Position numbers and translations under genes: made by a program
Origin: an uncultured Actinomycetota bacterium
Lineage (GTDB): Bacteria; Actinomycetota; Actinomycetes; Mycobacteriales; CADCTP01
Length of the DNA stretch: 64,000 bases
NCBI GenBank assembly: GCA_963714145.1
Contig: OY970235.1
Coordinates: 6,737,722-6,801,721 of the forward strand
Reading direction: 5' to 3'
Notes under the pieces: generated by a model
What the model was told of the DNA's origin: nothing
Databases searched by the model: none
The model's input: the letters and a program-made list of their open reading frames with translations, nothing else
In this document: piece by piece, positions 16,317-36,432 of the stretch
Position numbering within the stretch: position 1 is the stretch's first letter
How the letters are laid out: every line of letters begins with the position of its first letter

Positions 16317-16401
16317 GGAGGATTCGCCTAGTGGCCTAGGGCGCACGCTTGGAAAGCGTGTTGGGGGCAACCCCTCAAGAGTTCGAATCTCTTATCCTCC
16401 G
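16317..16401 (+). tRNA. tRNA-Ser (anticodon GGA)
   Basis: Acceptor GGAGGAT/ATCCTCC, anticodon stem CACGC/GCGTG with loop TTGGAAA, long variable arm TTGGGGGCAACCCCTC, T-arm AAGAG-TTCGAAT-CTCTT. CCA is not encoded. Confidence 0.93.
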
Positions 16402-16407
16402 CGTCTC
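16348..16407 (+). repeat. attL core: 60 bp of tRNA-Ser(GGA), from the anticodon loop to 6 bp past the 3' end, identical to 32920-32979
   Basis: cttggaaagcgtgttgggggcaacccctcaagagttcgaatctcttatcctccgcgtctc was read at both positions. Confidence 0.85.
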
Positions 16408-16562
16408 TGACCAGGGCAAACGCCGGCCGTGTGGGGTACGCCGTGTCCCACGGGTGCCGGGTCCGTCTCAGTTCCCGTCTCAGTCGGAGGTTGGGTGCCT
16501 AGACCGTCCAGCCTCGCTGTGGCCGGCCGCAGGGTCGGAGCACCGTCCCGGCGGAGGCCAGG

Positions 16563-17381
16563 ATGAACCGTCAGATCGAAGCAGCACCGCCAGTCGACTG
16601 GCGTGACCTTGAGGAGAGGGCGGCGCGGATCCTCGCGGACTGCGGCATGGAGACCCTGCGTGCGCACAAGATGGCGACGGTCCGCGGCGAAGTCGTGGTC
16701 GACGTACACGCTGTAGATCCGACCACTACTCCTCAGACAACCATCATCGTGGAGTGCAAGAATTGGCGAAAGCGGGTGCCGAAGACAGTCGTCCACGCTT
16801 TCCGGACTGTCCTTGGTGACACTGGCGTCAACTTAGGACTCCTGCTCTCGGCAGCCGGGTTTCAGAGTGGAGCCCTAGAAGCCGCGGCGCACAGCAACAT
16901 TCGCCTACTCGACTGGCGAGCGTTCGAAGAGATGTTCGTCGAGCGGTGGAGACGAGATTGCATGGTACCGAAGGTCCTAGACCAGGCGGAGCCACTGTTG
17001 GAGTACACCGAGCCGGTCAACTTCCGCATCTTTCCGCACCTTGAGGCGCTTCCCCCGACGAAACAGGCCAGATTCTCGGCGCTCCAGGACAAGCACCTTG
17101 CCTTGGCCTATCTCCTGACACCATGGTCTGTCGCGCGATTTCTGAGCCTGCGTCCGACCTCGCGGGTGCCATCGCCGGACCGGCAGCTTGAAGCACTAAC
17201 ACTACCTCTGCGCGAGTATTTGCCAGTCGCTTGGGTAGGCGCTGACGGCGACCGACTCGTGCAGGGCCTGCCAGAGGAAGTTCTCGACGCGAACGCACTC
17301 AGACCCTTGCTGGACGCGCTCCTCGCTAGCATTCGGGCGGCCATAGCTGAATTCGACGAGGTATTCGGAGGGCGTGCCTAA
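16563..17381 (+). CDS. Mrr-like (PD-(D/E)xK) restriction endonuclease domain protein with unknown C-terminal half
   Basis: N-terminal WRDLEERAARILADCGMET...VVVDVHAVD...TIIVECKNWRKRVPKTVVHAFRTVLGDTGVNLGLLLSAAGFQSGALEAA matches the Mrr_cat pattern (D...ExK, then a v..l.g segment, then s.gF). About 150 aa at the C-terminus are unassigned. GC is visibly lower than the core genome. Confidence 0.7.
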   Translation: MNRQIEAAPPVDWRDLEERAARILADCGMETLRAHKMATVRGEVVVDVHAVDPTTTPQTTIIVECKNWRKRVPKTVVHAFRTVLGDTGVNLGLLLSAAGFQSGALEAAAHSNIRLLDWRAFEEMFVERWRRDCMVPKVLDQAEPLLEYTEPVNFRIFPHLEALPPTKQARFSALQDKHLALAYLLTPWSVARFLSLRPTSRVPSPDRQLEALTLPLREYLPVAWVGADGDRLVQGLPEEVLDANALRPLLDALLASIRAAIAEFDEVFGGRA

Positions 17382-17404
17382 CGTCCGCTGTCCGGAGCCG
17401 CGTC

Positions 17405-17795
17405 CAGAATATTTCTCCGACCTGAGCCGCGATGACGCACCGGATCTTGCTGGTCACATGTCGGTAGGGCTTGCCATGCCGGTGTCGGCCCAGCGTATGA
17501 GGGGCATGACGGTGCACTCGGGGACACCGACGACCAGGGAGGACGGTAGCGGCGTTGTGGCGAACGTCGCGCAGGCGGGGCGGCGCGGGACTCGGGTCGT
17601 GCGGAGGAGTCGTTTTCTAGTCGTGGTAGTCGGTGCTGGGGCCGACCGCTTGGCCGGTGGGTGAGGTGATGACCCAGTCGCTTTCGCACCAGAGCGGGGC
17701 GACGGGCTGACGCTCGCGGTCCTGCGCGACGCGGTGGGCGCGCAGAACCTCGCCAGCTCGTCAGGTAGGCCGACGACGCGGCGGCCATTGCCGGA
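17405..17795 (-). pseudogene. remnant of a second tyrosine integrase (C-terminal catalytic part only, frameshifted)
   Basis: About 360 nt align by eye at roughly 70-75% identity with 18480-18850 of the intact int gene (e.g. tcgtggtagtcggtgct, ccggtgggtgaggtga, gctcgcggtcctg). The coding sense is split between two track frames (17454-17957 and 17378-17788). Confidence 0.75.
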
Positions 17796-17822
17796 GGCCG
17801 ACGGTCGAGCGAGTATCAGCAA

Positions 17823-18377
17823 ATGTCGGCGAAGTGTCCCCGTGCGCCCGCTGAGCTCGCTATTGTGATCGGCATGGGCTACAGAATGACTGGCTTCAGC
17901 GCCTTCGGCCTTGGCGTCGAGTGGGAGAAGGTTCCAGGCGACGAAAAGGTGGCACACCGCGTGATCGCCTACCTTGAAAATCGACGGCTATTGTTCGGAT
18001 CGCGCCATTCCAAAGATCAGGACCACTGCGTCGCCTCGGCGATCGAGATTCGCAACTATCTGACGACCGAGCTTGGCTTGACCAAGCAAGGCAGCAGCCT
18101 GTCCATGAGTCTGCGCGCGATTCGGGCGGCCTGCCGGCAGTTCGTGGAGGCAGGTGGGCCGCGCGGACGGAACTTCCTCGGAGACGCGCCCTGGGACGCT
18201 GGGCCCTTTGGTCTCGCTCTCGGCGACCTCCGGACTCTCGTTGGTTGGCAGGTGGCCACGATCGCAGGCGAGTACGAGATCGAGGTCGAGCCCGAACTCG
18301 CCGCGATCATGCCGCCTTCGTTGGACTCTGACGAGGATGACCCGTCGTGGCTACCGGGCTTCGAGGACCAGACGTGA
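17823..18377 (+). CDS. hypothetical protein (no recognisable domain)
   Basis: 184 aa ORF; the start is more likely the ATG at 17874 (MGYRMTGFSAFGLGVEWEKV). Its stop lies 1 nt from the convergent int stop. Acidic C-terminal tail. Confidence 0.5.
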   Translation: MSAKCPRAPAELAIVIGMGYRMTGFSAFGLGVEWEKVPGDEKVAHRVIAYLENRRLLFGSRHSKDQDHCVASAIEIRNYLTTELGLTKQGSSLSMSLRAIRAACRQFVEAGGPRGRNFLGDAPWDAGPFGLALGDLRTLVGWQVATIAGEYEIEVEPELAAIMPPSLDSDEDDPSWLPGFEDQT

Positions 18378-18378
18378 C

Positions 18379-19659
18379 TTAGCTGTCATCGCTTGCACCC
18401 TCTTCTCCGTCGGCTGCGTCTTGAGCCTTGTCGTCCTTCACCGGCCTGGGTGCCCATAGGAGCCCGCCGACCTGCCCCGCGATGTCGTGTCGGACTTGGC
18501 TCGTGATGTGCTGGTAGCGCTTGGCCAGGCCGGTGTCTGCCCAGCCCATCAGTGCCATGACCGCCCGCTCAGGTACACCGAGGATCAGCAGGACCGTGGC
18601 GGCGGTGTGGCGGGCGTCGTGCAGGCGAGCGTCGCGGACTCCGGCGACGCGGAGAAGCCGTTTCCAATCGTGGTAGTCGGTGCTCGGGTTGACCGGCCGG
18701 CCGGTGGGTGAGGTGAAGATCCAGTCGCCGTCGTGCCAGAGCTGGCCGGCGAGCTGGCGCTCGCGGTCCTGTTCGTCGCGGTGGATGCCCAAGAGCTTCA
18801 CCAGCTCCTCGGGTAGACCGATGGCGCGGCGGCCGTTGGCCGATTTCGTGTTGCCGGCTTCCGACCGGATGAGCCGGCGAGCTGGGCAGTAGCCGGCGCG
18901 GTCCCGGTCGCACTTCCCGTCGCAGCCGTGCTCGTACTTCGGACGGTTGCGGCTCCGGCGGACGAAGAGCGACGCGTCGTCGAGGTCGACGTCCGGCCAG
19001 CGGAGGCCGAGCGCCTCGCCCTGACGGAGGCCGAGCGCGAGCGCGACCGCCCAGCGGACACCGTTTCGCCGCTCCGCGGCGGCGGCCAGGATGCGCTGAA
19101 CCTCGTCGACCGTGTACGGCTCGACCTCGGTCTCGGTCAGCCGAGGCGGCTTCGCCAGCTCGGCTGGGTTGATCGTGATATGGCCACGACGGACCGCTTC
19201 GCCGAGCGCGGTACGGATTGTGCGGTGCGCCTGATGGGCCGTGGCCGGCGAGCTGCCCTTGGCCTGCATTCGCTTGTAGAGCTTTTCGAGGTGTTCCGGC
19301 TGGAGCTTGTCGAGGCGGTGCGCGCCCACGCCGGGGATGAGGTGGACGCGGACGGCGACCCGATAGCCAGCGAGCGTGTTCTCCGAGATGGACGGCGCGG
19401 CGATCTCCTCGACCCAGTGGTTCAGCCACTGCTCGACGGTCGAGGGGCGGCCGGGTTTGCGTACGTGGCCGGAGTCGCGCTGCTTCTCCAGCTCGCGCAC
19501 CTTGCGGTACACCTCGGTCCGTGTCTTCGCTTCGACGTGCCGACGGTCCGGCTTGCCGTCGTCGCGCGTTCCCATCGTGACCCGGCCGTGCCACTTGCCG
19601 TCCTTGCCGAGGTAGATCGAAGATGCGCCGTTCGGAGCGCGGCCCTTGTCGCTAGGCAT
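18379..19659 (-). CDS. int: tyrosine-type site-specific integrase
   Basis: 426 aa. N-terminal SAM-like/core-binding domain. Catalytic region LALGLRQGEALGLRW...HDARHTAATVLL...VMALMGWADTGLAKRYQH contains the R..HxxR..Y elements. Confidence 0.92.
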   Translation of the reverse strand: MPSDKGRAPNGASSIYLGKDGKWHGRVTMGTRDDGKPDRRHVEAKTRTEVYRKVRELEKQRDSGHVRKPGRPSTVEQWLNHWVEEIAAPSISENTLAGYRVAVRVHLIPGVGAHRLDKLQPEHLEKLYKRMQAKGSSPATAHQAHRTIRTALGEAVRRGHITINPAELAKPPRLTETEVEPYTVDEVQRILAAAAERRNGVRWAVALALGLRQGEALGLRWPDVDLDDASLFVRRSRNRPKYEHGCDGKCDRDRAGYCPARRLIRSEAGNTKSANGRRAIGLPEELVKLLGIHRDEQDRERQLAGQLWHDGDWIFTSPTGRPVNPSTDYHDWKRLLRVAGVRDARLHDARHTAATVLLILGVPERAVMALMGWADTGLAKRYQHITSQVRHDIAGQVGGLLWAPRPVKDDKAQDAADGEEGASDDS

Positions 19660-19670
19660 GGGGCGGCTCC

Positions 19671-19898
19671 TCAGGCGGCCGGCCGGTCGGCGGCCAGGCC
19701 GCGGAGCCGGTCGAGGAAGGCGGGTAGGGCGTCGGCTGGGATGCGGCGGAGCCGTCCAATTTGGACGGACTCGACTTCGCCGGCCTTGACGAGTGCGTAG
19801 ACGAGGGTGCGGCCGATGCCGAGTTGGTCGGCGGCTTCCTCAATGGTGAGCAGGAGCCGAGCGGGAACGGTGGTGGGCTGGTCGGGGTGCTGGAACAT
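19671..19898 (-). CDS. xis: excisionase-family helix-turn-helix DNA-binding protein
   Basis: 75 aa. LLTIEEAADQLGIGRTLVYALVKAGEVESVQIGRLRRIP is the excisionase/MerR-like HTH_17 pattern. Located directly upstream of int. Confidence 0.85.
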   Translation of the reverse strand: MFQHPDQPTTVPARLLLTIEEAADQLGIGRTLVYALVKAGEVESVQIGRLRRIPADALPAFLDRLRGLAADRPAA

Positions 19899-20144
19899 GG
19901 CGAGCCTTTCGAGGCGGGGTTTGGGTGGGCCGGCGGCGGGGCCGAGCGGGCGGGAGAACGCCGGATCGGTCCGGGCGGAGGTCGAGGACTGGGCCGCGGT
20001 CGGCGACCGGTGGCGGGCCTCTGGGGGATCCCTGTACGGGCCATAGAGCGCCGTTCTCGGGCCGGCCGGTGTGAGGGACCGGGGCGGCGGCCGAGGCCGT
20101 CACGGCGGGGCGCCGCACAGAACTCGCGGAACCCACAGAAGGGG

Positions 20145-21722
20145 TCATCGCCGGCCTCCGGCGGGCGGTTCTGTGGGTTGTGTGGGTTCTGTGCAGGCGG
20201 GGTGGACCTCGTAGGCCGGCGACGGCGGTCGGCCGCCTTGCGGCGTCGATGCCGGCGGCGGGACGGGCCGGATGTGGCCGTGGTCGACCAGCAGCCCGAG
20301 TGCCGGGTCGAGGTCGGTGACCTTGCGGTACCGGGTACCGCGTAATGCGGCGAATGCGTCGCGGCGGGTGAATCGGTCGGCGCCGGTGCGGGCGATCCAG
20401 TCGAGGACGGCGCGGCCGTCGTCGACGAGGGGATCGGCGCCCATGTGGTCGAAGACTGCGAGCGCGTGGGCGAGGTAGTAGTGGCCGAGCCGGGCGGCGG
20501 CGTCCACTGTGGACGCGGGCACCGGCCTGTTCCAGCCGCTGTCGTGGTGGGTTGCGACGTGCAGGAGTCCGGCGATGCGGACGGTTGCGCCGGTGAGTTT
20601 GGATGCCCAGTCGGCGAGGTGGCCGAGGTCGCCGGTGCCGGCGGCGAGGCGGGGTTCGATGGCGGTTTCGAGGTCGAGGACACGGGCGTCGGCGTCGGGC
20701 GCGAGCGGGAGGACGGCGGGGTCGGTCCAGTCGGCGAGCGCGAGGACCAGGGCGCGGAGGTTGTCCGCGTAGCCGGCGGTCACGGCGGCGGGCGGCGGCG
20801 GGGTGCCGATGCGGCGGCGGCCGACGGTGTTGGCCGGCAGCGAGTAGAGGATGCGGGCGAGCAGTCCGCGGCCGCGGAAGCCGGGCATGCGTGCGATGTC
20901 GACCAGGACTTCGGGTTGGACGGCGAGGCCGAGGGTGAGGGCGGGTTGTTCGACGTGCTCGGCGGGCCGGCCTTTGCGGTCGACGCGGAGCATGTCTCCG
21001 GCGTGGCCCTTGAGGAACACTTCGAGGTTCGGCGCGCCGGAGTAGCGGCCGGCCAGTGTGGTGAAGATGCCGGCCTCGGCCGACAGGACGGCGAGCCGGC
21101 CGCCCTGCTCGGCCAGCAGCGACGCCGCGGCCTCGGGGGTGACGTCGTCGGCGACCAGCCGAGGCAGCACCGGGACATTGATCTCGTCGGCGGCGAGCGC
21201 GGCCGAGGATGCGTCGGCGAACGCGGTCATGCGCGCGTCAGTGGTTGCGGCGTTCTCGGCGGCCTTCGCGGTCCGCTCGGCCCGTGCCCGGGCGACCCGG
21301 GCGGCGAGCTCGGCCTCGACGACCTGCGGGCGGGCCAGCTCGACGAGCGCGGCCTCGGCTGCCAGTAGTGGTGCGGTCATGGCGGCGAAGACCGCCGACT
21401 TGCGGGAGCCGGGCGGCATCGCTACCGCGGTGAACAGGTTGACCGGCTCCCGCCAGCCGGGCCGAACCTCGACCACGGCCCGGCCGCCGGCCGCGGTCGA
21501 AATCGCGGCGAGTGCGATGCAGCCGGCGAGGTCGGCCGGGGTCTGGGTGAACTCGGCGACCGCGGCGACCTGGTCGCCGAGCCAGCCCGGTAGCGCGTCG
21601 ACCGGGAACGGCGGGAGCAGCCGACGAGCGGACAGCGGCACCGGCTCGCCGTCCCATCCAGTGCCGGCCAGCACCCGCAGCGGCCGGCCGGGATCGGCTC
21701 CGGCAGGGTCAAGGGCAGTCAT
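20145..21722 (-). CDS. DUF3987 (YfjI-like) protein, putative replication helicase/loader partner of prim-pol
   Basis: ATG at 21722 (MTALDPAGADPG...) makes an ATGA overlap with the upstream stop. PPFPVDALPGWLGDQVAAVAEFTQTPADLAG...AMPPGSRKSAVF is the DUF3987 signature as I recall it. The 5' part of the track ORF is low complexity and rejected. Confidence 0.7.
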   Translation of the reverse strand: MTALDPAGADPGRPLRVLAGTGWDGEPVPLSARRLLPPFPVDALPGWLGDQVAAVAEFTQTPADLAGCIALAAISTAAGGRAVVEVRPGWREPVNLFTAVAMPPGSRKSAVFAAMTAPLLAAEAALVELARPQVVEAELAARVARARAERTAKAAENAATTDARMTAFADASSAALAADEINVPVLPRLVADDVTPEAAASLLAEQGGRLAVLSAEAGIFTTLAGRYSGAPNLEVFLKGHAGDMLRVDRKGRPAEHVEQPALTLGLAVQPEVLVDIARMPGFRGRGLLARILYSLPANTVGRRRIGTPPPPAAVTAGYADNLRALVLALADWTDPAVLPLAPDADARVLDLETAIEPRLAAGTGDLGHLADWASKLTGATVRIAGLLHVATHHDSGWNRPVPASTVDAAARLGHYYLAHALAVFDHMGADPLVDDGRAVLDWIARTGADRFTRRDAFAALRGTRYRKVTDLDPALGLLVDHGHIRPVPPPASTPQGGRPPSPAYEVHPACTEPTQPTEPPAGGRR

Positions 21723-22930
21723 GCTGCGGCCTGGCCGGGACGGCGCGGCCGGCGGCCACCGGCACGCAGCCCGGACCGGATGGTGCTGGCCGCCTCGGCC
21801 TGGCCCAGCCCGATCCCGACGGCAGCCTGTTCCAGCTCGGCCGTGACGAGGTCGGCGGGCAGAGCGCCACCGGCGACGAGCTGGCCGAGGGCTACCGCGG
21901 CGGTGAACAGGATGCGGTTGCGGCGTCCCTCCGGCGCGGCGGCGACCACGGCGACCTCGCGGGCGACTGCGGCCCGCAGGTACGCGGGCAGCCGGCCGGC
22001 CGCCGGAGCGGGCGCCGCGGGCCGGGGTCGCGCAGCCGGTGCGGTGAGGCGGCCGGCGAGCCAGTCGGGCAGTGGCGCGGCTGGCTGGTCGAGCGCGACC
22101 GTGTACGGACGTCCGTCCACTGTGGAGCCGGAGCCCACGACGTAGCCGCCGTGGCCGCGGGTGTCGACCAGCCAGCCGAGCGCGCCCGCCGTGTTGCCCA
22201 GTCGCGTGCCGGCCGGGGCGGTGAAGTACAGGTGGGTTCCGCCCCGTCCGGTGTGGACGGTGTGGGTGGCGGCCGGGAACGGCTGCCCGGCCTGCTCGGC
22301 AAGGGCCGCGAGGACGTCGGAGCCGTCGTGCACTCCGTCGAGTCGCCACGGCTCCGGCGGGCCGTCATCGGTCTTCGGCTGGTCGAGGTCGACCACGAGC
22401 AGGCCGGACGGTCCACATGCGACTCCGATGCCGTAGCGGCGGGTCGACCAGGCACGGCGGATGCGGTCGCGGTCAGTGGTGGCGCGTGGTTCCCAGCCGG
22501 TGTGACCGTCCCGGCACCAGGGATCGGCGCGGGTGCAGCGGTCGGCGGTGTGGTCGGGGAACGCGGGCCGCTTCGCGTCGGGCCGCAGCGGGAATACGCG
22601 CCAGCCGCGGCCGGCGGCGGCGAGCGCGGCGGCCAGGGCCGGCGCGGTGTGCGGAATGTCGGCTGGCGCGTGCCGGCCAGCCGGCGGCGGCCCGGCCTCG
22701 ACCAGGCCGGCCGCCGTCCAGCCGGCGAGGAAGGCGAGTGCCCCGCCGCGGGTGATCCGCGCGGCTTCGGCGAGGCTGGCGGCGGTGACCGGGCCGCCGT
22801 CGAGGTCGACCAGCGCTCGCCAGGCGCGGTCACGAAGGACGCTCGCGTCACGCTGGGTGTTCGGCGTCGAGGGTCGGTTAGCGGTGCCGGGGCGGGGGGT
22901 CATGACGCCTCCTGAGCCTGTTTCGGGCAT
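21719..22930 (-). CDS. bifunctional DNA primase/polymerase (Prim-Pol), AICE replication protein
   Basis: RGWRVFPLRPDAKRPAF...YGIGVACGPSGLLVVDLD...GGTHLYF...VDTRGHGGYVVGSGS matches the archaeo-eukaryotic primase-like prim-pol N-terminal domain. The start could be 22930 or the GTG at 22903. Confidence 0.8.
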   Translation of the reverse strand: MPETGSGGVMTPRPGTANRPSTPNTQRDASVLRDRAWRALVDLDGGPVTAASLAEAARITRGGALAFLAGWTAAGLVEAGPPPAGRHAPADIPHTAPALAAALAAAGRGWRVFPLRPDAKRPAFPDHTADRCTRADPWCRDGHTGWEPRATTDRDRIRRAWSTRRYGIGVACGPSGLLVVDLDQPKTDDGPPEPWRLDGVHDGSDVLAALAEQAGQPFPAATHTVHTGRGGTHLYFTAPAGTRLGNTAGALGWLVDTRGHGGYVVGSGSTVDGRPYTVALDQPAAPLPDWLAGRLTAPAARPRPAAPAPAAGRLPAYLRAAVAREVAVVAAAPEGRRNRILFTAAVALGQLVAGGALPADLVTAELEQAAVGIGLGQAEAASTIRSGLRAGGRRPRRPGQAAA

Positions 22931-22942
22931 GGGTCAGGTAGG

Positions 22943-23031
22943 GGCGCTAGCGCGCTAGCGTCCTGGCCAGTCGGGTTGTTGAGGGCTAGCGGGGGCGCTA
23001 GGTCTAGCGGGGGCAGGGGCTAGACCTAGCG
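22943..23031. repeat. cluster of CTAG-centred repeats (GCTAGCG x3, GCTAGGTCTAGC / GCTAGACCTAGC inverted pair)
   Basis: Read directly in the 111-bp gap between the tra stop (23042) and the prim-pol start (22930). Confidence 0.8.
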
Positions 23032-23041
23032 GCGCCCGCGG

Positions 23042-25204: not shown

Positions 25205-25222
25205 CGTTGGTCTCCTTCCGGG

Positions 25223-28398: not shown

Positions 28399-28704
28399 TC
28401 AGGCCGCCGGCCGCTCGCGGTCCGCCCGCCGCGCCGACCGGCGCTCCTCGGCGCTGAGCCCACCGACCACGCCATGCGTGAGCAGCGGCCCGAACGTCGC
28501 CAGGCACAGCGCCGTCACCGGGCACGCCGCACAGACCGCCTTCGCCACGTCCGGCGACTGGCCCTTCTCCGGGAAGAACACCTCGGGGTCGACCTGCGAG
28601 CACAACGCCGACTCCCACACCTGCCGCACCGCGTCCGCATGCGTGCGGACCGCCGGGAACAGCGCCGCCGCGGCGGCCACCGCCCGTCCGTTCACTGCCG
28701 TCAT
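28399..28704 (-). CDS. WhiB-family transcriptional regulator
   Basis: C-x(n)-C-x2-C-x5-C cysteine pattern (ALCSQVDPEVFFPEKG...AKAVCAACPVTALCL) followed by GVVGG and a basic tail. Confidence 0.85.
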   Translation of the reverse strand: MTAVNGRAVAAAAALFPAVRTHADAVRQVWESALCSQVDPEVFFPEKGQSPDVAKAVCAACPVTALCLATFGPLLTHGVVGGLSAEERRSARRADRERPAA

Positions 28705-28725
28705 GACTCGACCCTTCGTCCCGTT

Positions 28726-28797
28726 GATCTAGATTGACCTAGGCTAACCTAGGTCAATCTAGATCACAATGATGCCGATGCCGATGACCTAGGTCAT
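28726..28797. promoter_or_regulatory. operator-like palindromes in the divergent whiB / gntR intergenic region
   Basis: Perfect 18-4-18 palindrome GATCTAGATTGACCTAGG-ctaa-CCTAGGTCAATCTAGATC at 28726-28765. A second site, ATGACCTAGGTCAT at 28784-28797, shares the core TGACCTAGGTCA. Confidence 0.7.
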
Positions 28798-28810
28798 CTA
28801 CTGTTCAGAG

Positions 28811-29182
28811 GTGGCCGTGACCCCCAACGACCCCCGACCGCCCTACCTCCAGGTCGCCGACGACCTGCGGGCCGCCATCACATCCGGCCGGTACGCGCCG
28901 GGCGAGCGGCTGCCCTCCGGCCGGGACCTCGCCCGCGAGTACGGCGTCGCCCTGATGACGATGCAGCGCGCGCTGAGCGCCCTGGCCGAGGAGGGCCACG
29001 TCGCGCTCTACAAGAGCCGCGGCGCCTTCGTCCGCTCGGCCGAGCCCGGCGACGGCGCCGAGACTCGGCCGACCCTCGCCGGCCTGGCCCGGGAGGTAAG
29101 CGACCTCCGCGCGACCGTCCAGGCTCTCGAAGGGCGGCTCGACCAGCTCGAACGACCCAAGCGCGGCCGGTCCGGTGCCTGA
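28811..29182 (+). CDS. GntR-family transcriptional regulator (KorSA-like)
   Basis: PPYLQVADDLRAAITSGRYAPGERLPSGRDLAREYGVALMTMQRALSALAEEGHV is a GntR wHTH. Short coiled C-terminal tail. Confidence 0.85.
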   Translation: MAVTPNDPRPPYLQVADDLRAAITSGRYAPGERLPSGRDLAREYGVALMTMQRALSALAEEGHVALYKSRGAFVRSAEPGDGAETRPTLAGLAREVSDLRATVQALEGRLDQLERPKRGRSGA

Positions 29183-29314
29183 CTGCCCGATCATGTCGTT
29201 CCGCCTCCCTGTCCCGGCTGCTGTGCTGGGAGCCAGTGAAGTCGGGATCGGGGCCGTCCGTGATGACCTGGCAGTGCACCCGCAGTGCACTCGGCTCGCG
29301 GAGGGGAGGCAGCC

Positions 29315-30880
29315 GTGGATGTCGTCGACACCTGGACCGGCCGGCACGCGACCGCGCTACGCCGGGCGCTGCGCCTGACGAACGAGGCACTGGCCGAGGA
29401 GCTGGGCACCGCCGTGCGCACGGTTGCCAAGTGGAACGCCGATCCCGACCTCGTCCCGGTCCCGGACATGCAACGAGCGCTCGACACGGTGCTCAGCCGG
29501 GCGCCGGAGCCAGCCCGTGCCCGGTTCACGCTGCTTCTCGCGGCCGACCTGCCAGCCTCCGCCCCGCCGGTGACCGAGGCGGCGGCGGCCGAGCTGGCCG
29601 GCGACGACAGCAGCGCCGCCGCCGCGCTCGCCTGGGTCGACCAGGCCGCCGGCTGGCAGCCGGAGACGGCGTCGCGGCTGCTGGCCGAGCGCGCGGCATT
29701 GACCGACCGTCGGCGCATCCGGCAGGTTGCCGCCGCGCGTGCCCGGGTCGGCCGTGACGACCTGGCCGCCGCGCTCGCCGCGTACTACGGCACCGACGAC
29801 GAGCACGGCGTCTACCGGGGCGTCTGCGCCGGGCAACGGCTGACCACCAGCGTCCTGACCCGGCCGTCCTGGCTCGACCTGCGGCTCCCGCTCGGTGCTG
29901 GCCGGGAACACCTACGCCTGTCGCCCGGGCCGGCCGCGCCGATCGCCGTCGACCAGCTCGGCGCCGCCGCGGCGGTCGACCGCATCGCCACCGGCCTGCA
30001 AGCCGACCTGCGCATGGTCAACGCGCCCATCTACTCCCTGACCGACGTGACCGTGTCGGCCGGCGGCATCGCCGGCATGGTCAGCCTGGCCGGCTTCTTC
30101 GACTACGCCCTCACCCTCGACCTGCTCGAAGCCGAGCTGACGGACGCGATCGGCGCTGGCCTGCCACCGGCACGCGGACACCTGCCACTGCGCGACCGCT
30201 ACCTACCCGACCTCGCCAGCGTGCTCAACGTCGCCGGCCGGCTCTGCGCCGGCGGCCCGCCCGCCCTCTGCGCCATCGCCCGGCCCGCCACCCGCAACCG
30301 CGGCCCGGACTACCTCCTGCTCATCCAAGAGCGCTCCGGCCGGGTCCTCAACTCCGCCCGCCGGCTCGCGGTCATCCCGAAGTCGTTCCACGGGCCGCTC
30401 GTCGACTACGCCGAAGACGCACAGATTCACCGCTCGGTCGAACGCGAGATGGAAGAGGAACTGTTCGGCCGGGACGACGTCGACTCGGTCCTGTCCGGCC
30501 AGCGCAGCGCCGACCCGATGCACCGAAGCCGCCTGTCCGTCCCGATGCGGTCGCTGATGGACCGGCCCGACGACGGTTCCTGGCGGATGGAGTGCACCGG
30601 CTACGGCTACAACCTCCTGACCGGAAACTACGAATTCGCCACCCTCATAGCTGTCCACGACGAGACCTGGTGGGCCGAGTACGGCGGCCACATCGAAGCC
30701 AACTGGGAATCCGCCAGCCTCCGCCGCTACTCCACCCGCGACCGCGACGCCATCACCGCACTAGCCTTCGACCCAGCCTGGAGCAACGAAGGACTCTTCG
30801 CCCTCCTCCAAGGACTACGCCGCCTCGCCGAGATCGACAGCGACCGCACCGACCTACCTGCAATCGACTGGGAGACCTGA
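29315..30880 (+). CDS. XRE-type HTH protein with C-terminal Nudix-like region (Pif-like)
   Basis: GTG at 29315 is preceded by GGAGGGGAGG. N-terminal HTH LRLTNEALAEELGTAVRTVAKWN. The C-terminal SVEREMEEELFG resembles, but does not exactly fit, the Nudix box REUxEExGU. Confidence 0.55.
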   Translation: MDVVDTWTGRHATALRRALRLTNEALAEELGTAVRTVAKWNADPDLVPVPDMQRALDTVLSRAPEPARARFTLLLAADLPASAPPVTEAAAAELAGDDSSAAAALAWVDQAAGWQPETASRLLAERAALTDRRRIRQVAAARARVGRDDLAAALAAYYGTDDEHGVYRGVCAGQRLTTSVLTRPSWLDLRLPLGAGREHLRLSPGPAAPIAVDQLGAAAAVDRIATGLQADLRMVNAPIYSLTDVTVSAGGIAGMVSLAGFFDYALTLDLLEAELTDAIGAGLPPARGHLPLRDRYLPDLASVLNVAGRLCAGGPPALCAIARPATRNRGPDYLLLIQERSGRVLNSARRLAVIPKSFHGPLVDYAEDAQIHRSVEREMEEELFGRDDVDSVLSGQRSADPMHRSRLSVPMRSLMDRPDDGSWRMECTGYGYNLLTGNYEFATLIAVHDETWWAEYGGHIEANWESASLRRYSTRDRDAITALAFDPAWSNEGLFALLQGLRRLAEIDSDRTDLPAIDWET

Positions 30881-30881
30881 T

Positions 30882-31238
30882 ATGGCAGACAACTGGTACC
30901 AGGGCAACGCCGCCGCCGAGAACGACCAGCACCGCGGCTGGTTGCTCGGCCACTTCATCGACGGCGAGGACGCCACCATTCGCAAGACCAACGCCCTCGA
31001 AGTCAAATGGGGAATCCACAAGGCCGGCGAGGAACGCCCCGAATGGACCACCGGCGAAGACCGCACAACCCTCTTCATGCTCATCAGCGGCAAGTGGCGC
31101 CTAGACCTCACCGTCGGCACCTTCACCCTTGACCGCCCCGGCGACTATATCGTCTGGGGACCCGGCATCGACCACTCCTGGCAAGCCCAGGCCGACAGTA
31201 CCGTCCTAACTATCCGCTGGCCTTCGAGCCAACTGTAA
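30882..31238 (+). CDS. small cupin-like protein
   Basis: 118 aa starting 2 nt after the preceding stop. A beta-rich sequence with G.Y...GPG..H.W; cupin assignment from pattern only. Confidence 0.45.
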   Translation: MADNWYQGNAAAENDQHRGWLLGHFIDGEDATIRKTNALEVKWGIHKAGEERPEWTTGEDRTTLFMLISGKWRLDLTVGTFTLDRPGDYIVWGPGIDHSWQAQADSTVLTIRWPSSQL

Positions 31239-31330
31239 CGCAGCGTGGACGACAGAACTACTGACATGTCAGCCAATGAACACACATCAGAGGTCCGGCG
31301 AGGTAATTGCGCTTCGCTATGAAGACTGAC

Positions 31331-32575
31331 CTACTGTCCGCCATGCGACACGACATAAGGAGGCCGCGCTTGGGTTCGGCCATACGGGTAGCGATCCGCG
31401 ACCGTTGACAGATACCGATCGACCGCTTCGATGTCTCGGAAGTGCTCGTGCTTATAGTTCGGAAAGTTGTCCACTCGCGGCTTCTTTGTAACACTCAGTC
31501 GAACATCCTGAAACGGAATGGGATCTGAAGGCAGTGGCCCCGCACCGGAGAGAACGAGGCACATCACCTGCTGGGCGTCGGTTCGTGTTGTCAAATTGTA
31601 TATTCGATGCATCCCATCAATTATCACCAATGTACCATCGGGCTGCCGTTCAACAATTGGCGGCAGAACCACCGTGCGATTGCCGCTGCCCTCAACTCGA
31701 CACGGCTCAAAGAACTCTAATCCGAACCGTTCATATCCCTCAAGGAGAGGGGAACCCTTAGCAACGTTCGCGGCCTTTACGGTGCGACAACATGAGTATA
31801 GCGACGCACAAGAAACCATTTCGATAGAGATCGAATTTGTAGTCAAGCGACTGTAGTGCGGAATTCGCGACAGAATATGACGGACTTCGTCCGCATCCAA
31901 TACCAAGCGATCCAAGATCACTCCCGGCGGGAGAGTCTCCCAGACTGAATCGAAAAGCTGGTGCAACATGGCGATGTAGCTCATGTCCCGCCCAGGGAGG
32001 TAGCGGCGAGCATGATAGTCAAATAGGCTGTCCGTGCCGGCCTCTCCTTCAATTAGAGCAATGCGCTGCTTCGGGTGCTTGGTCACGGTAAGCGCAGTTC
32101 CATTGTCAAGGCTAGTCTTCGTGTCGACGACCAGACCCCGCAGCTTTACCATATCTCCGGTGTAGTACTTCACCTGCACGCCGGCCCCGAAAAGAACCCG
32201 AACCTGCTCTAGCAGAATAGGCGTAGAAGGCCACCTACAAAGAACGCGAATTACTACCCCTAGCTGAGTCCGCTCAAGAATCGGATTCTTACTACTCTCC
32301 GCCCAGGAAACATCACCGGCAAAGACCGCCACGGATGAATCCGCCCGGGTGAGGAGCGCGCGCCAAGCCAAGTCGACCGTTCGCTTGCCGTTAAACACGT
32401 TTGCGTCACGGTGGAAAATCTGCACGAAGACCAGCACAGCAAAGGCCGCGAAAGAAATACCGATAAGCAGATAGGACACGGTCGACTGAACGTTGACCAA
32501 CTTGTCAAAAGACATTCCAGTAATACCGATAACAATGCTCGCCCATTGGATGATGTTGGCAACCTTACGGGTCAT
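31331..32575 (-). CDS. low-GC cargo protein: N-terminal 2 TM helices, unassigned central domain, C-terminal ParB/Srx-like (DGxHR) domain
   Basis: ATG at 32575 (MTRKVANIIQW...) with GGAAGG upstream; the track ORF allows a start at 32668. TM helices IIQWASIVIGITGMSF and VSYLLIGISFAAFAVLVFVQIF. C-terminal PPIVERQPDGTLVIIDGMHRIYNL. Composition is clearly A/T-richer than everything around it. Confidence 0.7.
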   Translation of the reverse strand: MTRKVANIIQWASIVIGITGMSFDKLVNVQSTVSYLLIGISFAAFAVLVFVQIFHRDANVFNGKRTVDLAWRALLTRADSSVAVFAGDVSWAESSKNPILERTQLGVVIRVLCRWPSTPILLEQVRVLFGAGVQVKYYTGDMVKLRGLVVDTKTSLDNGTALTVTKHPKQRIALIEGEAGTDSLFDYHARRYLPGRDMSYIAMLHQLFDSVWETLPPGVILDRLVLDADEVRHILSRIPHYSRLTTNSISIEMVSCASLYSCCRTVKAANVAKGSPLLEGYERFGLEFFEPCRVEGSGNRTVVLPPIVERQPDGTLVIIDGMHRIYNLTTRTDAQQVMCLVLSGAGPLPSDPIPFQDVRLSVTKKPRVDNFPNYKHEHFRDIEAVDRYLSTVADRYPYGRTQARPPYVVSHGGQ

Positions 32576-32919
32576 CAGCCTTCCACTTCTCAGCATGCCA
32601 TGAACCAGCCCAAGCCAGGATTCACCCTCATCAAGGTGATCGAACCGAACCCCCGTTCGCCGCCACACCCTTGGACCTGGGTGACTCTAGCGTCAGTTCT
32701 GCTACCTCGTCGGTCGCCCTCACCTGATCAGCCCGAGCGATGGGGGGATCGTCGGCGTCTCCAACGCTGCTCGCCTGCCACCTACGCCACACCTCGTCGG
32801 CCGGTCCGTCTCAGTTCCCGTCTCGTTCGTCTCAGTCCACTGGCGGCCGGACAGGACCGCGGTTGGCCGGCCAGCGCTTGCCAGCACGAGACGGACCGCC
32901 ACGGACGGCGCGGAGCAGA

Positions 32920-32979
32920 CTTGGAAAGCGTGTTGGGGGCAACCCCTCAAGAGTTCGAATCTCTTATCCTCCGCGTCTC
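32920..32979 (+). repeat. attR core (exact 60-bp copy of the tRNA-Ser(GGA) 3' part; no tRNA 5' half)
   Basis: Identical to 16348-16407. Confidence 0.85.
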
Positions 32980-33279
32980 CGATCAGGCACGATGCTCAAT
33001 CCTTGGACCGCTGCGATCCTTGGAGCGCGAGCCCGTCTCAGTTGAGCCGACGGCACACCAGCAGTCTCGACGTGCTCGGCACTCGTGACCCGCGGGCGTC
33101 ACGGCCGGCTAGCGGCGGTGTCGGTGGCGGGCCGATGACCTGCCGCCGAGTGCCAGCGTCCGGTCGTCGCCGTCGACTGGTGCTCCACCCGGCCGCTCTA
33201 TCCCGGTTTGCGAGGTTGTGCTGGCGGCCCGGCGCGGCCGGGCTGTCGTCAGCGCGAGCCGGTGAGGCATCCTGGGTGG

Positions 33280-33597
33280 GTGAGTCGGTATGCGGAGGCG
33301 AAGCCATACGCGGTGCCGAGGTCGCTGTCCGACCTGACCGGGCCGACTGGCGGCACCGTCGTGCTGCCCCGACACATCGATTGGGGCCCCGCATATGTGT
33401 ACGACCTCGCAGATGAGTCAGATCTGGCTCTTCTCTACGAGCGGGTGATCCGGGAGGCCCAGACCCCTGATGATCTCACCGCCTTCCTGGACGGGGCGAC
33501 GCTGCGCCGGCTGTGGCCCACGCTGATCGTTCCCCGGCCGGCCCGCGCCAGGTGGGAGGCACGTTTCGAGGAACTGGCCCACCAAGCGGTCGCGTAG
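33280..33597 (+). CDS. putative antitoxin partner of the AbiEii-like nucleotidyltransferase
   Basis: GTG at 33280 (VSRYAEAKPYAVPRSL...). Its TAG stop overlaps the GTG of the downstream gene (TAGTG). No domain recognised; the call is by position only. Confidence 0.4.
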   Translation: MSRYAEAKPYAVPRSLSDLTGPTGGTVVLPRHIDWGPAYVYDLADESDLALLYERVIREAQTPDDLTAFLDGATLRRLWPTLIVPRPARARWEARFEELAHQAVA

Positions 33598-34253
33598 TGG
33601 ACGAGTTCCATCAACGCCTGATCCGGATCGGCTTGGACGCACTGGCCGTTGACGACGGCTACGCGCTGGCCGGCGGCTACGCCGTCCAGGCACACCACTT
33701 CATCGACCGCCTCAGCGACGACGTTGACCTGTTCGTGCCCATAGAACGCAAGCATGAGATGCCGACCGCGACTGCTCGAATCATCGCAGCATACGACCAG
33801 GCCGGGCTTCGGGCGCAGATTCGCCAGCACGCCGATACCTATGTACGCCTCGATGTCACCGATCCGGCGATCGGCCGTACCGTCAAGGTCGAACTCGTCG
33901 CAGAATTCCTCATGAATCCACCCGTCCCGTCCGATCTCGGCCCCGTCCTGCACCCAGACGACGTTGCCGCTGGAAAGCTTGAAGCGCTGTTCACCCGCGC
34001 CGAGGTCCGTGATTTCATCGACGTGGACGCCCTACTGCGGGGCGGATACAACCGGAGCCAGCTCATCGAGCTGGCTAAACGGCGCGACGCGGGCTTCGAT
34101 GAATCAGTCCTCGCGGACATGTTTGCGAGCCTGTACCGTCTCAACGATCGCCAGTTCGCCGTCTACGGGATAGACGCAGCCGCCATCCAGGAGATCCGCG
34201 ACCAATTCAAGAGCTGGCAACAAGATATCCGCGACCGACTCAAGAACAGTTGA
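33597..34253 (+). CDS. nucleotidyltransferase AbiEii/AbiGii-family toxin (DUF1814)
   Basis: 218 aa. ALAGGYAVQAHHFIDRLSDDVDLFV (NTase G..(x)n..DxD) and the C-terminal helical region are typical of type IV TA toxins. Confidence 0.75.
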   Translation: MDEFHQRLIRIGLDALAVDDGYALAGGYAVQAHHFIDRLSDDVDLFVPIERKHEMPTATARIIAAYDQAGLRAQIRQHADTYVRLDVTDPAIGRTVKVELVAEFLMNPPVPSDLGPVLHPDDVAAGKLEALFTRAEVRDFIDVDALLRGGYNRSQLIELAKRRDAGFDESVLADMFASLYRLNDRQFAVYGIDAAAIQEIRDQFKSWQQDIRDRLKNS

Positions 34254-34424
34254 CGACCAGCCATCGCTCCTGCGGCGATGCGGAGTGCGGGCGCGAGCGG
34301 CAACCGCGTGCGTCTCGTTTGCCGTCTTGTTCACGGCCGTTCAGACGGGTGCCGGCGGGTACGTCCGGGGCGCCGCAACGAACCAACGGGCCCAGCCGAA
34401 CCGGGCGGAACGGACACCGGCAGA

Positions 34425-34482
34425 CTTGGAAAGCGTGTTGGGGGCAACCCCTCAAGAGCTCGAATCTCTTTTCCCCGCTCCC
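34425..34482 (+). repeat. decayed third copy of the tRNA-Ser(GGA) 3' part
   Basis: cttggaaagcgtgttgggggcaacccctcaagagCtcgaatctcttTtccCcgc; a few substitutions relative to 16348-16407. Confidence 0.8.
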
Positions 34483-34566
34483 CTGACCAGCACGAACGCC
34501 GAGAGCCGGCCGCCGAGCGGGTAGTTTGAATCGCATGTACATCGCCCACAGGGAGCTGCGATAACC

Positions 34567-34782
34567 GTGACGCAGATTGATCTTGATGACGACGCGCTCA
34601 GCGAAGCGATGCGGCTCTCCGGCGCGAAGAGCAAGAAGGAGACGGTGAATCTCGCACTGCGGGAGTACTCCGCTCGGCACCGCCGCATCGCGGCACTTGA
34701 TCACTACGCCACTGTCGCCAAGGGCTGGGACTACGAGGGCTGGCGGGAGTTGCGAGGCGAGGGCAAGGCACCCATTGCGTGA
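34567..34782 (+). CDS. vapB: type II antitoxin, VapB-like (DUF2191 type)
   Basis: 71 aa. TQIDLDDDALSEAMRLSGAKSKKETVNLALREY is the typical pattern. Overlaps the downstream PIN gene. Confidence 0.75.
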   Translation: MTQIDLDDDALSEAMRLSGAKSKKETVNLALREYSARHRRIAALDHYATVAKGWDYEGWRELRGEGKAPIA

Positions 34783-35201
34783 TGCATTACCTGGCCGACT
34801 CGTCGGCCCTCTGGCGTGTTTTGCGCGACCCCGACGTACGGGCTGGCTGGAATGAGGTGATCTCCAGCCACGCGATCGGGTCGTGCCAGCCGCAGCGCAC
34901 CGAGTTTCGCCGCTCAGCTCGCAATCTCGACGAGTACGAGCAGATGACCGCGATGTTTGTCGATCTGTACCCCGATTTCCCGGTGCCGAACGCGGCCTGG
35001 CAGTGGGTCGAGTCGGCCCAGTACCGACTACTGCGGGTTGGGGCGCACCGAGCGCTGTCCTGTGTGGATCTGCTCGCCTGCGCCTGTGCGGCCATCCGGG
35101 GACTCGTGATTCTGCATGACGACAATGACTTCGTCGTGGCCGTGCAGCACCTGCCGGATCTCGCCGAGCGGCGGATACAAGCGCTCCCCGGGTCCGCATG
35201 A
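34779..35201 (+). CDS. vapC: PIN-domain toxin VapC
   Basis: YLADSSALWRV (first acidic residue), E at about position 43, and C-terminal ILHDDNDF. GTGATG overlap with vapB. Confidence 0.8.
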   Translation: MMHYLADSSALWRVLRDPDVRAGWNEVISSHAIGSCQPQRTEFRRSARNLDEYEQMTAMFVDLYPDFPVPNAAWQWVESAQYRLLRVGAHRALSCVDLLACACAAIRGLVILHDDNDFVVAVQHLPDLAERRIQALPGSA

Positions 35202-35290
35202 CCTGCACGACCGCGGGCGCCGGCGTGACGAGCCCGGCGCGCCACCACTAGCCAACTCGATGCCCGCTCGTGCAGTCCGCGCGGTCCCGC

Positions 35291-35325
35291 CTGCTCCGCT
35301 CCCTGACCAGGACAAACGCGGGCGG
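35291..35325 (+). repeat. possible further att/tRNA-trailer remnant
   Basis: ctgctccgctccctgaccaggacaaacgcgggcgg versus atcctccgcgtctctgaccagggcaaacgccggcc at 16394-16428; about 27 of 32 positions by eye. Confidence 0.45.
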
Positions 35326-35450
35326 CGGCTGCCCGCCCACCCGGCGTTCAGGCTGTTCGTCATTTCGGCCGCCTCGGTCTCAGCTCGGCCTCGTGTGATC
35401 CGGTCGGCGAGGTCCGTCCGCCTGGCTCGGCCGCGACTACACTGCACTAC

Positions 35451-35873
35451 ATGTCATCCCCACTGTCGATCAGGTTCGACCCGGCGCTGTTGGCTCGACT
35501 GCGGCGACGGGCGGAGGCGGCGGCCGGCGGCAGTGTGTCGACGCTGGCGCAGACGCTGATCGATGAAGGACTGCGGATGGCCGAGCACCCGGGGATCGTC
35601 TTCAAGTCAGGGCCGAGCGGCCGGCGGGCAGCGCTGTCGAACGGCCCCGATGTCTGGGAGATGATCAAGTTCCTGCATGAGATCGATGAGCGTGGCCAAG
35701 CAGCGGTGGCCGCCGCGGCCGAGGTGTTCGGTCTGCCCGAGGCCCGGGTGCGCACAGCGATGAGGTACTACACCGACTACGACGCCGATATCGAGGGTGA
35801 GATCGCGCTCGCCGACGCCGAGTCGGCTGCGGCCGAGGCCGCCTGGATCACCGAGCAGCGCCTGCTCGCGTGA
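35451..35873 (+). CDS. DUF433-like antitoxin candidate
   Basis: 140 aa with an RHH-like N-terminus and GIVFKSGPSGRRAALSNGPDVWEMI. Its stop overlaps the downstream gene. Confidence 0.55.
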   Translation: MSSPLSIRFDPALLARLRRRAEAAAGGSVSTLAQTLIDEGLRMAEHPGIVFKSGPSGRRAALSNGPDVWEMIKFLHEIDERGQAAVAAAAEVFGLPEARVRTAMRYYTDYDADIEGEIALADAESAAAEAAWITEQRLLA

Positions 35874-36262
35874 CGCCACCGTCGGACCCGATCACCGTCC
35901 CGCTCCTACTGGATGAGATGTTTGCCCCGATCGTCGCAGAAGCCCTGCGAGACAAGGGTTATGACGTTATCGCGATCGTGGCCGACTCCGGTCTACGAGC
36001 GCTGAGCGATGACGAGGTGTATGCCTGGGCAGCTGCCCAGCGACGGTGCCTCGTCACCGAGAACGTGAAGGATTTCCGGCCCATCCTCACCCGCGCTGAG
36101 GAAGCCGGCAGCCCGGTCGCCGCCCTGTTGTTCACCAGCAGCCGCACCTTCCCCCGCAGCCGGCGCAACCCGGGGCCCCTCATCGACGCCTTGGACACCT
36201 GGCTTCGAGCGGCCGGCCCGACGCCGGCGAGCGTGGAGCAGTGGCTACAGCCCGGAAAATAG
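35870..36262 (+). CDS. DUF5615 / Mut7-C PIN-like toxin candidate
   Basis: 130 aa. LLLDEMFAPIVAEALRDKGYDVIAI...LVTENVKDF. The usual partner of DUF433 proteins. Confidence 0.55.
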   Translation: MTPPSDPITVPLLLDEMFAPIVAEALRDKGYDVIAIVADSGLRALSDDEVYAWAAAQRRCLVTENVKDFRPILTRAEEAGSPVAALLFTSSRTFPRSRRNPGPLIDALDTWLRAAGPTPASVEQWLQPGK

Positions 36263-36344
36263 CGCGTGGACTGCCACGGACGGCCATGAACGGGGCCCTC
36301 AGCAGGCTTGGTAACCCGGACGTACCTTCGCGTGTACCGGCACG

Positions 36345-36388
36345 CAGACCCGGGAAAGCGTTGGGGCGACCCCTCGGGGTTCGGCGGG
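36345..36388 (+). repeat. strongly decayed fourth copy of the tRNA-Ser(GGA) 3' part
   Basis: cagacccgggaaagcgttggggcgacccctcggggttcggcgg versus cagacttggaaagcgtgttgggggcaacccctcaagagttcgaatc. Confidence 0.55.
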
Positions 36389-36402
36389 CGGATTCGCCCG
36401 AA

Positions 36403-36432
36403 GCGCGGGTGGGCTCCGCTGCCCACCCGCGC
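36403..36432. terminator. perfect 12-bp stem-loop between convergent operons
   Basis: GCGCGGGTGGGC-tccgct-GCCCACCCGCGC. Confidence 0.55.

Follow-up and report, generated by a model that had tools for sequence, protein, structure and literature searches.

Copies of a tRNA-Ser(GGA) 3' half delimit a probable array of integrated elements in an uncultured Actinomycetota bacterium

In a stretch of 64,000 nucleotides from an uncultured Actinomycetota bacterium (assembly GCA_963714145.1, contig OY970235.1; referred to below as the window), it was observed that the tRNA-Ser(GGA) gene is followed over about 20 kb by further copies of its own 3' half. These copies bound a 16.6-kb compartment with the genes of an actinomycete integrative and conjugative element (AICE) and, downstream of it, small islets with an AbiE-type gene, a VapBC pair and a DUF5615 protein, an arrangement suggestive of repeated integration at one site. 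The tRNA gene is divergent from the cluster of dnaX and the signal recognition particle (SRP) RNA gene, and the window has a G+C content of 72%. In a genome scan with DnaX, no species representative exceeded 79% identity, and the nearest proteins were those of Geodermatophilaceae, Jatrophihabitantaceae and metagenome-assembled genomes (MAGs) labelled 'Mycobacteriales bacterium'. The coordinates of all features are given in Table 1.

Table 1. Features of the tRNA-Ser(GGA) array and of the second tRNA-Ser locus (window positions; E, expect value; ORF, open reading frame; HTH, helix-turn-helix; RHH, ribbon-helix-helix)
Feature	Position	Strand	Evidence and remarks
leuA - recR - ybaB - dnaX - SRP RNA	window left part		conserved actinobacterial cluster (Pfam on dnaX, recR)
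dnaX	14114-16159		conserved left flank with ybaB, recR, SRP RNA
SRP (4.5S) RNA gene (ffs)	16168-16264	-	Rfam RF00169, 66.5 bits
tRNA-Ser(GGA), target gene	16317-16402	+	intact; ARAGORN; Rfam tRNA 53.1 bits
att1 (attL core)	16348-16407	+	anticodon loop to 6 bp past tRNA; exact 60-bp repeat with 32920-32979
P' arm of AICE	16407-16485	+	trailer CTGACCAGGGCAAACGC 16407-16423; arm repeats GTCTCAGTT/GTCTCAGTC 16465-16473, 16477-16485
Mrr_cat restriction-endonuclease-like cargo gene	16563-17381	+	Pfam PF04471 E 1.2e-12; between P' arm and int
Integrase remnant	17401-17801	-	C-terminal residues ~271-403; 44% aa identity to intact Int, tblastn E 1e-19
DUF6650 cargo gene	17823-18377	+	Pfam PF20355 E 1.1e-8; abuts int stop codon
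Intact tyrosine integrase (int), 426 aa	18379-19659	-	Pfam Phage_integrase E 5e-21 and SAM-like N domain
Excisionase-like HTH_17 protein (xis)	19671-19898	-	Pfam PF12728 E 1.9e-11
DUF3987 protein, replication module	20145-21680	-	Pfam E 3.9e-111
Prim-Pol, replication module	21719-22930	-	Pfam E 2.6e-44
FtsK/SpoIIIE-like DNA translocase (TraB-type transfer protein), 720 aa	23042-25204	-	PHROG 1358 E 3.1e-25
GGDEF diguanylate cyclase gene	26963-27688	-	Pfam
WhiB-like regulator	28399-28704	-	Pfam
GntR	28811-29182	+	Pfam
531-aa HTH protein	29285-30880	+	weak HTH matches only (Pfam)
118-aa protein	30882-31238	+	attR-proximal
iHKD + ParB-CE protein	31331-32668	-	Pfam; 54% G+C (window 72%)
P arm of AICE	32808-32919	+	three arm-repeat units 32808-32837; CCAGCACGA 32881-32889; GCAGAC 32914-32919
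att2 (attR of AICE)	32920-32979	+	60/60 to att1, exact-match extension
AbiE islet	32980-34424	+	degenerate trailer 32980-32995; arm repeat 33035-33043; P-arm repeats GCGTCTCGTTTGCCGTCTTGTTC; both ends kept, no int
129-aa ORF upstream of AbiEii	33208-33597	+	
AbiEii	33513-34253	+	Pfam E 2.1e-16; PADLOC AbiEii
att3	34425-34482	+	55/60 aligned columns; then trailer CTGACCAGCACGAACGC 34483-34499
VapB	34567-34782	+	Pfam E 1e-15
VapC-like PIN	34779-35201	+	NCBIfam VapC E 8e-8, below cut-off; PIN E 0.015
att4 stub	35294-35385	+	last ~9 nt of tRNA region; trailer CTGACCAGGACAAACGC 35303-35319; hairpin; arm repeat GTCTCAGCT 35377-35385
140-aa protein and DUF5615 protein	35451-36262	+	DUF5615 Pfam E 9.6e-13; RHH_5 E 0.02 (weak) for 140-aa protein; common to sister strains
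att5, strongly decayed copy	36344-36383	+	GCAGAC and CCGGGAAAGCGTTGGGGCGACCCCTCGGGGTTCG; two strong hairpins next
Trailer copies in window	16407-16423, 34483-34499, 35303-35319, 45372-45388		
tRNA-Ser(CGA)	45282-45369		trailer 45372-45388, strong hairpin, arm repeat 45429-45437
ShosTA defence pair	ShosT-like 45460-46263; ShosA/DprA-like 46239-47246		E 1.3e-6; E 1.6e-57; next to tRNA-Ser(CGA) P' layout

The original prediction, made from the letters and translations, had described three downstream copies of the tRNA 3' half and a recurring trailer-like fragment, and each of them was recovered by alignment. The exact recurrence of att1 at att2 extended over the whole 60 bp, and the substituted copy att3 gave an E value of 5e-20 in blastn when its trailer was included. 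The first 34 nt of att3 were identical to the tRNA; its changes lie in the T-loop and the acceptor end and make it unfit as a tRNA half. The att4 stub (35294-35323) was matched by blastn at E 1e-3; its Smith-Waterman score was 20, and 5000 shuffles of its own intergenic region gave at most 19. The most decayed copy had been placed near 36345-36388; the gapped alignment of att5 (36353-36383) scored 18, compared with at most 16 when the 230-nt intergenic region was shuffled 5000 times and with 15-16 for the best unrelated tile of the whole window. The decayed copies are thus significantly similar to the tRNA by blastn, shuffles and window tiles, and the identity drops with distance from the gene, from 60/60 through 55/60 and the stub to ~35 gapped identical positions in a global alignment. 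Similarity was also found outside the cores. The hexamer GCAGAC precedes att2, att3 and att5 (36344-36349), where the tRNA itself has GCACGC, and the ~30 nt upstream of att2 resemble those upstream of att3. Just 3' of the tRNA part, att1 and att2 carry a GTCTC variant, and att3, att4 and the attL of sister strains (see below) read TCCC(C).

The cores are flanked by short arm-type repeats, defined as the 9-mer GTCTCAGTT with at most one mismatch. Two of them sit 58-78 nt 3' of att1. Three units lie 83-112 nt before att2, of which two match the 9-mer and the middle one reads GTCTCGTT, and a single repeat follows att2 at 56 nt (33035-33043). Degenerate repeats (GCGTCTCGTTTGCCGTCTTGTTC) were found ~95-115 nt before att3 (about 34310-34332), and one repeat lies 3' of att4 (35377-35385). 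Accordingly, a P' arm could be read at att1, both P and P' arms at att2, a P arm at att3 and a P' arm at att4. In the window, 7 of the 11 matches to GTCTCAGTT-like sequences fall within 120 nt of an att copy or a tRNA-Ser end (binomial p about 7e-12), and a 19-mer, CCGTCTCAGTTCCCGTCTC, is identical between the att1 P' arm and the att2 P arm. As judged from sequence, the downstream copies would therefore represent attachment sites with homologous P and P' arms, beyond mere tRNA fragments.

The trailer motif CTGACCAGGnCAAACGC was confirmed at the three places where it had been noticed (16407, one position before the predicted start; 34483, with two mismatches; and 35303), against 0.03 matches expected by chance, and a fourth, unlisted copy was found at 45372, directly 3' of tRNA-Ser(CGA). 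The 9-mer CCAGCACGA occurs both in the P arm before att2 (32881-32889) and in the att3 trailer (34487-34495), with five window matches compared with about one expected, which hints that a trailer-like motif flanks the attP core on both sides. We considered whether the trailer is the native terminator of the tRNA. Hairpin folding was exceptional only for the trailer of tRNA-Ser(CGA) (z -4.55) and the region after att5 (z about -5.0), and unoccupied tRNA-Ser genes of Geodermatophilaceae have neither trailer nor arm repeats. Because the unoccupied native genes lack the motif and most trailers are not exceptional hairpins, the terminator explanation was rejected and the trailer was assigned to the P' arm of the element.

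This assignment agrees with the layout of related loci. Homologues of the window integrase (47-71% amino acid identity), several of them truncated, were found at tRNA-Ser(GGA)-ffs-dnaX in 8 of 80 genome loci from other families. A metagenome scan with Int gave 51 loci. In those whose contig included a tRNA beside int, this was Ser(GGA) in seven, Ser(CGA) in three and Ser(TGA) in two, all with the same P' layout: a trailer of the type CTGACCAGSnnAAACGC, in many cases a hairpin, and then a pair of arm repeats with a spacing of 12 nt, at about +57 to +65. The 17-nt trailer is conserved across integrases 53-70% identical and across three tRNA-Ser isoacceptor cores (loci including L030, L043, L066, L073, L114 and L117); it may be a protein binding site or a signal for tRNA 3' processing or termination. 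Across 98 distinct tRNA-Ser 3' flanks, trailer and arm repeats were associated (odds ratio 13.8, Fisher p 1.2e-6). Since the trailer is tied to the arm repeats throughout the family, the trailers at 34483 and 35303 can be regarded as remains of earlier P' arms. The int stop codon lies about +80 to +140 from the tRNA in related loci; the slot between P' arm and int varies from about 100 bp to 2.1 kb (931 bp in L096, 2088 bp in L112/L113).

Between att1 and att2, a tyrosine integrase near att, Xis, a replication module, an FtsK/SpoIIIE-type translocase and direct repeats of the tRNA 3' part were found, and by this gene content and its att repeats the compartment can be classed, from sequence alone, as an AICE. 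The xis-like gene adjoins int in every one of 40+ related loci, and Walker A/B motifs are visible by eye in the translocase. The claim of a 16.6-kb AICE was therefore borne out by the modules and the att repeats, but the element is not a simple one. Its int ends 2 kb from attL, compared with ~100 bp in relatives, and its left end is composite, with the Mrr_cat gene, a divergent integrase fragment (17401-17801) and the DUF6650 gene between attL and int. The fragment may be a relic of a further tandem element that was fused to the present AICE by deletion. With respect to pSAM2-type regulation (the GntR protein KorSA and the Nudix protein Pif), a GntR gene was found, and its 531-aa neighbour had weak HTH matches and no Nudix match; what had looked like a Nudix box proved by eye to be merely a degenerate match, and the claim was dropped. 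The genes for transfer and spread also include the GGDEF diguanylate cyclase and the WhiB-like regulator (26963-28704). The gene at 31331-32668, with inactive-HKD nuclease (iHKD) and ParB-CE domains, directly adjoins attR; it had no PADLOC match and is probably recently acquired cargo, perhaps defence-like.

The AbiE-type label of the next islet was upheld as regards AbiEii, which is the only identified gene in 32920-34482; the 129-aa ORF upstream of it had no AbiEi match in Pfam, NCBIfam, PADLOC or PHROGs. This segment retains the att2 and att3 cores and the P' and P arms, and has lost integration and transfer genes. By its architecture it would fit the definition of a cis-mobilisable element (CIME), in which attL and attR are kept and these genes are lost (PMC5704250). 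The VapBC label also held, clearly for VapB and weakly for VapC/PIN; with the right arm and most of the core gone, this islet cannot be mobile today. Of the supposed DUF433/PIN-like pair, the DUF433 part failed, as the 140-aa protein had no DUF433 match even at E <= 5 and only the RHH_5 match, whereas a DUF5615 partner was indeed found. No traces of replication or transfer genes were detected in the remnants by tblastn.

Exact matches to RecR and the STAS protein led to sister strains, represented by contigs from soil metagenomes (such as JGI 3300031198 and 3300031184, and ERZ27251635) and by the MAG GCA_035544115.1. In at least three contigs, the flanks were 98.4-99.1% identical to the window. 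Exact-protein look-ups of Int, VapC and AbiEii, by contrast, had no match, so that the AICE itself was seen in no other assembly. The sisters are collinear with the window to 16414, then carry 2491 bp absent from the window, rejoin at 35028 and continue to 45434. The 20-kb block is thus not invariant, 16415-35027 being replaced by the 2491 bp, which comprise in order an att3-type trailer, two arm repeats, an integrase gene, P-arm repeats and the end of vapC. The integrase is full-length but frameshifted, with 71% nucleotide identity to the window int; the P-arm repeats match 32808-32838, and the last 58 codons of vapC begin 22 nt on (35028-35201 kept). Close relatives thus have other occupants at this site, and the left boundary of the difference is the attL junction. 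Before the strains separated, the VapBC islet, att4, the DUF5615 pair and att5 were already in place, and the AICE and the AbiE islet either reached the window strain later or disappeared from the sisters. The region 36.4-45.4 kb is common to both, so that the view that ordinary chromosome resumes after the array was correct at strain level. Among the relatives of the DnaX scan (family-level, <=79%), none had the right flank, and no ancestral empty site was definable there.

Taken together, the repeats and their arms, the genes present, the differences between strains and the use of tRNA-Ser genes across the family make it very likely that the array arose by site-specific accretion of related elements at one tRNA-Ser gene and subsequent decay, and the arms, the sister polymorphism and the tRNA-Ser integrases of the family thus favoured the successive use of one attB that had been proposed. 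Integrases that cross over in the anticodon loop replace the 3' half of the tRNA, and a block of identity is then expected from the end of the anticodon stem. Here the block begins exactly at the last base pair of that stem, at the stem/loop boundary, so that the crossover most likely took place within the anticodon loop. The tyrosine integrase would recombine there, and the element would supply its own tRNA 3' half and trailer, by which the gene is rebuilt at attL and the old 3' half is shifted to attR. To the right of each core would then lie the P' arm of the element on the right, and to the left the P arm of the element on the left. As the tRNA is regenerated every time, later members of the family could land again and push earlier ones downstream.

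At least five occupants would be needed. The first would be the relic at the tRNA-proximal end (the integrase fragment with Mrr_cat beside it), the second the apparently complete AICE between perfect 60-bp repeats, and the third the 1.5-kb AbiE islet, with both arms and cores and no int. The VapBC islet, truncated at its right end, would be the fourth, and the RHH-like/DUF5615 pair, with the most decayed att copy behind it, the fifth. In older elements, internal deletions would have removed int, xis and the genes for replication and transfer, while arms and toxin-antitoxin or defence cargo stayed, and selection may have favoured retention of the toxin-antitoxin genes. Two successive steps of such decay may be seen in the sister relic (P' arm, slot, frameshifted int, P arm) and in the AbiE islet (P' arm, toxin-antitoxin pair, P arm). 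Excision of the AICE is predicted to give an attP in which 32880-32979 is joined to 16408-16490 and an attB in which the tRNA is followed by CGATCAGGCACGATGC; on loss of both the AICE and the AbiE islet, the tRNA would be followed by the att3 trailer CTGACCAGCACGAACGC.

Several points weigh against this reading. The right breakpoint of the sisters, 35028, lies inside vapC and at no att copy, and therefore at least one boundary arose by ordinary deletion and not by site-specific recombination; with this deletion, an att core, vapB and the 5' portion of vapC were lost. The sister comparison thus agreed with the proposed boundaries at the attL junction but not at the right one. Around the VapBC islet no arm repeats were found, att4 is without most of its core, and att5 is weak (31 nt, gapped). 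The translocase gave nothing significant in Pfam, NCBIfam and PDB sequence searches, the PHROG profile being the sole recognition, and a Nudix (Pif-like) domain in the 531-aa protein was unconfirmed in the same three. A probe of P arm plus core had no exact match in viral_contigs that would represent the excised attP, and no empty attB was found either. In addition, a strict order of integration is unprovable, because att remnants can also serve as targets (PMC3218068). The order would follow from position and decay only: the graded decay with distance agrees with the suggested stratigraphy, but the AICE and the AbiE islet may have come together.

The last point leads to a different history, in which the AICE and the AbiE islet were brought together by accretion in an earlier host and both then came into this genome, by cis-mobilisation, as a single composite from att1 to att3. 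It is consistent with the absence of both from the sister strains, with the GTCTC variant common to att1 and att2 as opposed to TCCC(C) at att3, att4 and the sister attL, and with the two arms kept by the AbiE islet, and joint excision of tandem AICEs has been documented (PMC3218068; PMC9513070). But the deletion in the sisters could equally have taken an older AbiE islet, and att3, with its mutated T-loop and acceptor end, may be a poor substrate now; we consider joint entry possible but rather unlikely. It is still less probable that the small islets were never AICEs, being instead autonomous miniature toxin-antitoxin cassettes with att sites that use a resident integrase in trans. The cores and arm repeats on both sides of the AbiE islet, with only a toxin-antitoxin pair inside, and the absence of replication and transfer traces would suit such cassettes, whereas the sister relic represents an intermediate stage of decay, an integrase fragment is present in the window itself, and the VapBC islet is immobile. 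Finally, that the decayed copies reflect chance similarity or ordinary duplication of tRNA fragments is hardly credible: att5 is short and gapped and att4 is mainly a trailer also found at tRNA-Ser(CGA), but the shuffle tests, the common left-arm hexamer and arm repeats, the trailer as a family-wide P' arm feature and the strain polymorphism at the attL boundary all argue against it, and the arms are not common genome-wide repeats.

Under the preferred reading of accretion and decay, the conserved gap between the P' arm repeats and int might be a dedicated landing pad for defence or toxin-antitoxin cargo in a widespread tRNA-Ser-specific AICE family (GGA, CGA and TGA cores), and on decay exactly the slot and the two arms might survive as tiny cis-mobilisable cassettes, such as the AbiE islet, able to travel with the next AICE. 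This extension is speculative and we put it forward with low confidence; if it were true, both tRNA-Ser genes in these soil actinomycetes would be defence islands that renew themselves and can be exchanged.

In pSAM2, about 60 bp of identity extend from the anticodon loop to the end of the tRNA, as here. The AICE also shares with the group of pSAM2, pSG1 and pSE211 the order att-int-xis-rep-tra-regulator, with int pointing at the tRNA; unlike them, it has no RepSA and no confirmed Nudix Pif, and a 2-kb cargo slot with an integrase fragment lies between attL and int. The target of pSG1 is a tRNA-Ser, and Prim-Pol replication proteins occur, as here, in pSE211, pSE222 and AICEStrop0058 (PMC2440964). 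Tandem AICEs and remnants that share a tRNA, and their excision alone or jointly, have been published (PMC2440964, PMC3218068, PMC9513070), so that the locus is a further instance of well-described accretion and decay and leaves current understanding unchanged.

The closest parallel we considered is the tRNA-Arg hotspot of a Streptomyces population (Choufa et al. 2022, PMC9513070), where accretion, remnants and strain-to-strain variation were described. In both, direct repeats at a single tRNA enclose one to three elements and an old remnant, sisters differ in occupancy, one family occurs at different sites and elements decay; cis-mobilisation of leftovers was proposed there. The present case differs in its host, an uncultured Mycobacteriales-type soil actinomycete, in its tRNA-Ser(GGA) target, and in having five strata in 20 kb, of which the older ones are cut to toxin-antitoxin pairs and the arms are readable at nearly every junction. 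In S. avermitilis, AICESav3728 and AICESav3708 lie in tandem at a tRNA-Arg with a 44-bp att between them (te Poele 2008, PMC2440964), and in Frankia the tandem or triple-repeat AICEs Fean5518/Fean5534 and Fean6303 excise singly and jointly, tRNA remnants acting as att (Ghinet 2011, PMC3218068). Successive integration into a regenerated tRNA and three direct repeats are shared with these tandems, single and joint excision being theirs; in contrast to such pairs of largely intact elements, the window holds one intact element and graded relics. For ICESt1/ICESt3 of Streptococcus thermophilus, accretion-mobilisation of CIMEs has been reported (Pavlovic 2004, Bellanger 2011; reviewed in PMC5704250). 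There too an element integrates, decays to an att-flanked, int-less form, which the AbiE islet would fit, and a new element lands beside it, but in another phylum, with a type IV secretion system in place of the FtsK-like TraB, and at fda in place of a tRNA. As a natural example from an uncultured soil lineage, the locus shows a hotspot building a small defence or addiction island, with five layers that can still be read, polymorphism among sisters and successive stages of AICE decay in one place, and the att architecture of this tRNA-Ser integrase family (core, trailer, arm repeats, cargo slot) is usable for annotating elements and relics in other actinomycetes.

The family has a second target in the window, the tRNA-Ser(CGA) gene, and thus uses either isoacceptor gene, with different cores and homologous arms. 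The sisters diverge from the window at 45434 and carry there an AICE with an Int 70.6% identical to the window Int, int-xis-DUF3987 DNA 84% identical, and a cargo slot of ~1.1 kb with a 163-aa ORF. It was observed that in other families (L002, L016, L019, L022, L070) tRNA-Ser(CGA) lies directly downstream of a tadA homologue in the same orientation, and that in the window and the sisters it is reversed, with tadA (48392-48988) 3 kb away, a difference that points to an old rearrangement of this hotspot. Site-specific inversion between the two tRNA-Ser genes was discarded as its cause, since crossover within the cores would give a different arrangement. At tRNA-Ser(GGA) elsewhere, Streptomyces sp. 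HNM0574 (L072 8967-9614) has two complete genes 560 bp apart with identical trailers. In an Actinomycetota MAG (L071 371-2140), 58 nt of the tRNA 3' half recur with 90% identity at a distance of 1.6 kb from the gene. Either case may represent another small remnant at this tRNA gene.

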